A stretch of DNA of 15,304 nt. It comes from a virus. Lineage: Duplodnaviria; Heunggongvirae; Uroviricota; Caudoviricetes. Location of the stretch: the IMG/VR virus record IMGVR_UViG_638341087_000005, one strand, 5' to 3'. The notes beneath the pieces were generated by a model. The model was given only the letters and a program-made list of their open reading frames with translations. It did not search any database and was not told the origin of the DNA. Positions 1 to 873 of the stretch are shown one piece after another (the stretch's first letter is position 1; each line of letters begins with the position of its first letter). The translations under genes and the position numbers were made by a program.

Positions 1-873
1 ATCACCTGTCGCCCCCCGTTCGCCGGTTGCCCCGACAGGGCCGGTGTCACCACGCTCTCCCTTATCNCCCTTCGGCCCCTGAGGGCCAGCGGGCCCCTGT
101 TCCCCCTTTGGCCCGGGAGGTCCCACCACGGTGGGGATTCGGTTTACGGCGTCTTCCGCCGCTATCCTGCTTTGTTCCGCTGACTGTGCGCTTTCTGCTG
201 ACTCCCGGGCTTTTTCTGTTGCGGTCGTTGCATCCCTGGCTGCATTACCGGCTGCACTTTCTGCCGTCTTTTTTGACAACTCAGCATCTGCTGCACTTTG
301 TGATGACTCACTGGCTTTTTGAGCAGCCGCAGAGGCCGAGGACGAGGACGCCTCCTCTGACTGCTTTGCAGCGGCTGCACTTTCTGCCGCCTGCCGGGCT
401 GACTCCGATGCATCCCCTGCTGAAGTGTCAGCATTTGCAGCGCTCTCTTCTGCCTGACTGGCTGATATGCCGGCATTCCTCGCGGACGTCTCCGCCTCTC
501 CGGCATTCTTCTTCGCCTCCTCAGCATGACGCGCCGCTTCTTCCACCATCAGTTCAAAACGACGCAGTGCCTCCGGCCGGACGTCATCCTCCGACATGGC
601 ACCGAGAAAATCATTCAGCGTACCCGGTTGAGAATCTTCATACACGGTGATGGTCCCGGCATGTGACGGCGGGAATCCTTCCACCAACAGAATGACGCTG
701 TACTGACCGTACTCAACGTCCATGCTGTAACGACCGGCTTCATCCGGATTTTCAGAGGCCACCGTGTTCACCACCACCGTGCTGCTGGTCCGTCTGGCTT
801 TCAGTTGAATGGTGCAGTTCTCTACCGGTTTTCCTGTGCCGTCTTTCAGTACACCTGAAATCTTTACTGCCAT
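1..873 (-). CDS. stf: side tail fiber protein Stf, N-terminal part (partial; 3' end lies beyond window start)
   Basis: ATG at 873 (minus). My manual translation of the minus-strand frame with codon low ends at positions 1,4,7... is open for all 291 codons to the window edge (no TTA/CTA/TCA triplets on +). It begins MAVKISGVLKDGTGKPVENCTIQLKA...EGFPPSHAGTITVYEDSQPGTLNDFL, matching my recollection of the lambda Stf N-terminus, followed by an Ala/Ser/Glu-rich low-complexity segment and a Gly-X-Y collagen-like repeat at the window edge. Not in the supplied ORF track because no stop codon lies inside the window. Position is immediately downstream of lom, as in lambda. Confidence 0.85.
   Translation of the reverse strand, partial: MAVKISGVLKDGTGKPVENCTIQLKARRTSSTVVVNTVASENPDEAGRYSMDVEYGQYSVILLVEGFPPSHAGTITVYEDSQPGTLNDFLGAMSEDDVRPEALRRFELMVEEAARHAEEAKKNAGEAETSARNAGISASQAEESAANADTSAGDASESARQAAESAAAAKQSEEASSSSASAAAQKASESSQSAADAELSKKTAESAAGNAARDATTATEKARESAESAQSAEQSRIAAEDAVNRIPTVVGPPGPKGEQGPAGPQGPKXDKGERGDTGPVGATGERGATGD

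Follow-up and report, generated by a model that had tools for sequence, protein, structure and literature searches.

EPclA, a collagen-like protein typified by ECs2717 of Escherichia coli O157:H7 Sakai, is 437 aa long and consists of the modules PfN, PCoil (~116 aa), Col (111 aa) and PfC; it is carried by most of the lambdoid prophages of O157:H7 strains Sakai and EDL933 (PMC3368898). Recombinant EPclA from Sakai is a trimer, as determined by analytical ultracentrifugation (AUC), SEC-MALLS, CD and electron microscopy (EM), and the molecule has the shape of a dumbbell with a hinged stalk in which PfC serves as the trimerisation module (PMC3368898). Its PCoil of 116 aa contains 32% Ala, 19% Ser and 13% Glu in a heptad pattern that was called 'loose', forms a trimeric coiled coil by SEC-MALLS and CD, and melts at about 52 °C, while the collagen part, set off from PCoil by a hinge seen by rotary-shadowing EM, has the CD signature of a triple helix with a Tm of 42 °C (PMC3368898). 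Collagen lengths of 63, 78, 81, 111, 114 and 144 aa have been tabulated for proteins of this type, with length differences that are multiples of three in Col and of seven in PCoil (PMC3368898). Work published in 2012 had thus already established this class of protein, with its domains, its trimeric stalk of collagen and coiled coil and its length variants; the authors state that there is no published micrograph of EPclA fibres on a virion (PMC3368898).

A second system bears on how such a fibre is held on the tail. Cryo-EM of Ur-lambda (PDB 9e7m and 9mgh) shows that residues 1–91 of its side tail fibre protein Stf assemble in twelve copies into a collar where gpV meets gpM, that residues 92–101 form a flexible linker followed by a trimeric coiled coil, and that each virion bears four trimeric Stf fibres (PMC12617516). 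The anchoring mode of this N-terminal domain was accordingly solved, for Ur-lambda, in 2025 (PMC12617516).

The window, by which we mean the whole 15,304-nt stretch of DNA that was analysed, has on its minus strand a module of lambda-like head and tail genes, which comprises those for head decoration, major capsid, tail tube, G/T, tape measure, M, L, K, I, J, lom and stf. The last three of these follow one another in the order J (1604–5047, identified by its Pfam J domains), lom (938–1537; PF06316, E 1.5e-118) and stf, all on the minus strand. The stf frame opens with an ATG at 873–871 and runs to nt 1, where the window edge cuts it, so that the 5' two thirds of the gene are present as a single stop-free frame of 291 codons. 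All 291 encoded residues are identical to the first part of WP_024174073.1 (E. coli JB2, 437 aa), and nt 1–1000 of the window match the complete genome of that strain (NZ_CP182203) without a mismatch, one N aside. This N falls on nt 67, in the wobble position of a GGN codon, and the residue is Gly whichever base it stands for. The frame disruption raised as an issue in the preliminary description of this DNA is not seen: the frame has neither a stop nor any departure from NZ_CP182203 other than the N.

Several lines of evidence bear on the identity of the protein. The fragment matches PF08400 (Prophage tail fibre N-terminal) over the full length of the profile (residues 1–133, E 2.6e-69), and against the collagen profile PF01391 it scores 27.1 bits, marginally under the cutoff of 27.2 bits, with the full-length identical relative scoring 65.5 bits. 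Residues 1–93 align with the Ur-lambda 'Tail fiber protein' chain 9e7m_Ta, which forms the Stf collar, in a phmmer search of the PDB (E 4.7e-52), and the gene lies directly after J and lom; its initial reading as a side tail fibre therefore holds. Drawing on Pfam, the PDB, 80 IMG/VR loci, two papers and collections of E. coli and phage sequences, we conclude, at a probability of about 0.9, that the minus strand of nt 1–873 specifies a side tail fibre of a lambdoid prophage that belongs to the EPclA class (PfN-PCoil-Col-PfC), from its first residue to residue 291 of approximately 437. Because the C-terminal third lies beyond the window, its full architecture is known from identical and near-identical relatives alone.

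The window protein shares the module order of EPclA as well as its prophage location, and it is 98% identical at the amino acid level to the EPclA copy of O157:H7 strain 493/89. The compositions of the two coiled coils are likewise close (31/17/14% Ala/Ser/Glu here, compared with 32/19/13%). The differences are not substantive: they are a few substitutions in this allele and the quality of the heptads, which are 'loose' as published and number about 20 without a stutter here. EPclB, the tail fibre or spike of short-tailed Stx phages (Z1483 of 933W and ECs1228 of Sp5), also shares the PfN, PCoil, collagen and PfC modules; however, EPclB has 645 aa and two collagen domains with a Pf2 repeat between them and belongs to podovirus-type phages, whereas the window gene specifies one collagen domain and belongs to a lambda-like long-tail module. 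YaeT (BamA) has been proposed as the receptor of EPclB (PMC3368898).

The N-terminal domain of the window protein, PfN or StfN, occupies 601..873 of the minus strand (aa 1–91) and is expected from its homology to 9e7m_Ta to be the beta-rich collar domain by which the fibre is held on the tail; we placed its boundary according to the Ur-lambda structure (PMC12617516). The counterpart of Ur-lambda Stf residues 92–101 would put the linker at 571..600 of the minus strand. The likeness to Ur-lambda Stf extends over a near-identical collar, the linker, an Ala/Ser-rich trimeric coiled coil and the position of the gene after lom. It ends in the distal part, where Ur-lambda Stf binds OmpC through a receptor-binding region resembling T4 gp37 (PMC12617516); the window protein would have there a collagen stalk with a 64-residue PfC tip, and no tfa would follow its gene.

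PCoil, at 139..570 of the minus strand (aa 102–245), had been described as a low-complexity segment of about 145 residues rich in Ala, Ser and Glu. The composition stands (31% Ala, 17% Ser and 14% Glu over residues 108–250) and the length comes to about 138–143 aa, but the label does not, for the segment has the strict periodicity of an alpha-helical coiled coil. When residues 108–245 are written in rows of seven, about 20 unbroken rows of the form xSAxxAx result and the register never shifts. Identity autocorrelation within the stretch gives z = 6.2, 5.4, 4.4, 4.4 and 4.6 at lags of 7, 14, 21, 28 and 35 residues, Ala-only autocorrelation gives z = 4.9 at lag 7, and the top Fourier period of hydrophobic and Ala positions is 3.5. 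Random low complexity is ruled out as a description of the stretch by this strict heptad repeat without a stutter, and both this periodicity and the PF01391 scores of the collagen part are well outside what would arise by chance. A single-sequence monomer AlphaFold2 (AF2) model of the 291-aa fragment (mean pLDDT 62) is confident in the helix only, which begins at residue 95 and ends at 244 with block-mean pLDDT values (10-residue blocks) mostly between 75 and 87, falling to 66 at a kink near residues 172–176 that is probably an artefact of modelling one chain. The PfN and collagen parts of the model are below 50, and the Gly-X-Y part has no regular structure, as expected for a single chain. 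The same Ala/Ser heptad segment also follows PF08400 in lambda-type fibres that lack collagen.

A five-residue junction, IPTVV (aa 246–250; 124..138, minus strand), joins the coiled coil to the collagen part; we read it from the sequence, and by analogy with EPclA it is the probable hinge of this copy. Col starts immediately after it. The preliminary description reported at least 13 perfect Gly-X-Y triplets at nt 1–123, and we find exactly this: residues 251–289, encoded from nt 123 of the minus strand, read GPP GPK GEQ GPA GPQ GPK GDK GER GDT GPV GAT GER GAT and are followed by a partial triplet, GD, that brings the frame to residue 291 at nt 1. Pro occupies the X position in six of these 13 triplets. 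In the full-length JB2 protein the run counts 37 triplets without interruption, at residues 251–361 of 437, which means that the repeat does not belong to the N-terminal region of the fibre, to which it had been assigned.

The DNA encoding the collagen part is GC-rich (72%, as against 59% in the Ala/Ser/Glu-rich part and 56% in the whole window); at the nucleotide level there is no near-perfect tandem repeat. Tandem Repeats Finder (TRF) returns a period of 45 with 1.9 copies and a 75% match, and we otherwise find four diverged 56-nt direct repeats that are 61–77% identical to one another and spaced by 99, 108 and 36 nt. A repeat collapsed or expanded during assembly is unlikely because nt 1–1000 match the complete genome NZ_CP182203 without a mismatch. 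In addition, the 437-aa form with 37 triplets is the commonest among the relatives, and the DNA repeats are weak.

Lambda Stf has 774 aa and no collagen domain, and its distal region needs the Tfa chaperone. The distal end of the window gene can be followed in relatives. Pfam assigns the JB2 protein PF08400 at residues 1–133, PF01391, and PF06820 (PfC; Putative prophage tail fibre C-terminus) at residues 363–426 (E 3.6e-36), and PF06820 is present in every complete collagen-bearing relative that we retrieved. The preliminary description had anticipated a full stf and a tfa beyond the window edge. A full-length stf is indeed found there (437 aa in JB2), but a search for tfa downstream of stf in the relatives returned none. 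The position of lambda tfa, next after stf, is taken instead by an 89-aa ORF (7443–7712 of locus L001, just past nt 1 of the window) that is essentially one PF06820 domain (E 1.2e-34) and is 37% identical to the Stf C-terminus; a chaperone, an alternative tip and a remnant are candidates for its role. Because the relatives end in Col-PfC, and because the next gene encodes this PF06820 protein and not Tfa, the window protein is a collagen-stalk variant of the Stf family and not an orthologue of lambda Stf over its whole length.

How such a fibre would be built and used can be proposed from these parts. Three chains would come together as one fibre, with PfC and PCoil nucleating the assembly, and the PfN domains would dock on the tail as part of the 12-mer collar. 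A short linker would lead into a trimeric left-handed coiled coil of about 20 heptads whose core positions are Ala and sometimes Ser; the five-residue junction would then act as a hinge, and the collagen triple helix of 37 triplets would form the distal stalk. At rises of 0.15 nm per helical residue and 0.29 nm per collagen residue, we estimate that the coiled coil would measure about 17 nm and the collagen helix about 30 nm. The PfC tip, encoded beyond the window, would nucleate trimerisation and presumably contact the host surface, and the fibre as a whole may make adsorption faster or extend its range, as is the case for Stf in Ur-lambda. By analogy, the trimer, both of its helices and the hinge would follow from what has been shown for near-identical proteins (PMC3368898), and the collar from what has been shown for the lambda homologue (PMC12617516). 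For the copy in the window we infer expression, assembly into a virion and receptor binding by PfC.

The condition of the surrounding genes bears on whether the fibre is ever assembled in this strain. The window as a whole is 98.1% identical to the JB2 prophage (NZ_CP182203), and where JB2 has an intact tape-measure gene of 859 aa the window has three ORFs of 149, 114 and 621 aa (~7597–10179, minus strand), the split being due to three 1-nt insertions near nt 9801, 9710 and 9479. If these insertions are real, the prophage is tail-defective and the fibre has no function in this strain. On this reading stf would be an intact gene but a functionless relic of a defective prophage, its product never assembled here and the gene persisting only as material for recombination with other prophages. 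The frame-disrupted copies of EPclA listed in the published tables (PMC3368898) accord with such a fate, as does the number of places per genome that resemble the first 1 kb of the window (median 2, maximum 15). However, each insertion extends a short homopolymer and one of them is itself an N, and the window contains 36 Ns in clusters (for example at 67, 1394, 1466, 8737–8911 and 10673–10685), which marks the sequence as a draft or a consensus. The insertions are probably draft sequencing errors, and the stf part is without a mismatch to a complete genome, so that we regard the relic as unlikely, while granting it more than token weight, and prefer a side tail fibre gene that serves its phage.

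A role for the collagen-like protein in the bacterium, as a surface adhesin or host-interaction factor, was left open in the published work on EPclA (PMC3368898). Collagen-like adhesins do exist in bacteria, BclA was among our PDB matches, and the locus adjoins the virulence cargo genes lom, NleG and TccP2. Indeed, Scl1 and Scl2 of Streptococcus pyogenes and BclA of Bacillus anthracis resemble the window protein in having unhydroxylated, charge-stabilised Gly-X-Y triple helices nucleated by an adjacent globular trimerisation domain, but they carry secretion signals and reside on the cell surface or in the exosporium, are not parts of phage tails, and have neither PfN nor PfC. The N-terminal domain of the window protein, by contrast, is the collar domain of lambda Stf, which binds the tail; the chain starts with MAVKISG and passes straight into this beta domain with no evident signal peptide, the gene occupies a late tail operon position, and the published evidence for expression is tied to phage induction (PMC3368898). 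We therefore consider a bacterial function very improbable.

Opposite stf, the plus strand carries an ORF of 207 aa at 27..650 that starts with TTG and overlaps Col, PCoil and the end of PfN, in a frame that is open for 215 codons from nt 3. It had been put down as spurious, a by-product of the GC-rich repeats. We compared it with a null in which the protein was held fixed while its synonymous codons were permuted or redrawn from the codon usage of the tail genes in the window. The mean longest antisense run under this null was 156–167 codons, and a run of at least 215 codons arose in any frame in 12–16% of trials, so that run length gives no grounds for calling ORF 27–650 a gene; the amino acid composition of Stf explains it adequately. 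That this frame, which is as open as this in just 2.8–5.3% of trials when it alone is considered, which is open in six of the six relatives examined and which extends to approximately 296 codons in full-length relatives, should be a real overlapping antisense gene strikes us as wildly improbable, since the relatives are 96–100% identical and its persistent openness carries little information, the start is a TTG, and Gly/Ala/Pro-rich coding sequence is expected to be poor in antisense stops.

Collagen-like and low-complexity shafts had been put forward at the outset as length-variable segments that can drive fibre mosaicism, and both points are borne out by the 79 IMG/VR loci that we retrieved with the full-length protein as query. 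Among complete collagen-bearing relatives, most have 37 triplets, two loci have 38, one has 36 and three have 27, and one relative lacks exactly seven residues of PCoil, which is one heptad; these steps agree with the tables for EPclA (PMC3368898). The deletion of 10 triplets falls between recurrences of the motif GPAGPQGPKG. The stalk is built of units of three and seven residues, and therefore unequal recombination can alter its length without breaking the fold, a process with which the length variants and the diverged direct repeats are, as sequence patterns, consistent. The remaining IMG/VR loci have PfN and part of the coiled coil only, joined to unrelated distal regions of 400–1150 aa, including ones with lambda- or T4 gp37-like ends. 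This joining of PfN and an Ala/Ser coiled coil to many unrelated distal parts in other phages is the mosaicism anticipated at the outset.

Sequences like this one are widespread. DNA similar to the first 1 kb of the window is present in 4810 of 5426 complete E. coli genomes, with at least 80% of it in 708, and at least 80% of the stf fragment is present in 141 phage records, mostly of Stx1- and Stx2-converting phages in which it is annotated as tail fibre (best identity 97–98%). Such fibres sit on Stx-converting and effector-carrying prophages of pathogenic E. coli, and the many near-identical copies of stf within a genome are hotspots both for recombination between prophages and for misassembly of short reads. 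It is conceivable, though in our estimation doubtful, that the steps in stalk length (27–38 triplets, plus or minus a heptad) are not neutral slippage but adjustments, favoured by selection, of the distance to which the tip extends beyond O-antigen or capsule, with unequal recombination among the stf copies of one E. coli chromosome (up to 15 similar places) as their source and the 89-aa PfC paralogue perhaps taking part in assembly or tip exchange; what suggests this is the existence of the variants.

We note several features of the neighbouring DNA. A terminator-like GC-rich hairpin with a T-run lies between lom and the stf start codon (890..911, minus strand; a stem of eight pairs, seven of them GC, followed by TTTTTGTGGG), as found in a consensus scan, and a second terminator-like hairpin follows J at 1586–1567; both are pattern matches. 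The hairpins bracket lom, as would suit a moron that is regulated independently of the late operon around it. Compared with JB2, the window diverges most at the junction of the tail assembly gene I with J (~5040–5240); nt 5001–5500 contain 82 mismatches, and there are several small indels. In O157:H7 493/89 this junction is occupied by a sodC cargo gene, and it seems to be a site at which morons are variably inserted. The site after the fibre genes is the usual place of virulence morons at the end of a lambdoid prophage, and there we find genes for type III effectors, namely NleG (PF06416) in JB2 (L001 7825–8394) and TccP2 in O157:H7 493/89 (L002 7837–8589). Finally, in one locus (L008 2340–3707) Stf has lost its stop codon and, at 455 aa, continues for 18 extra residues (...TGRTGECHEHTKK...) toward the small PfC ORF.
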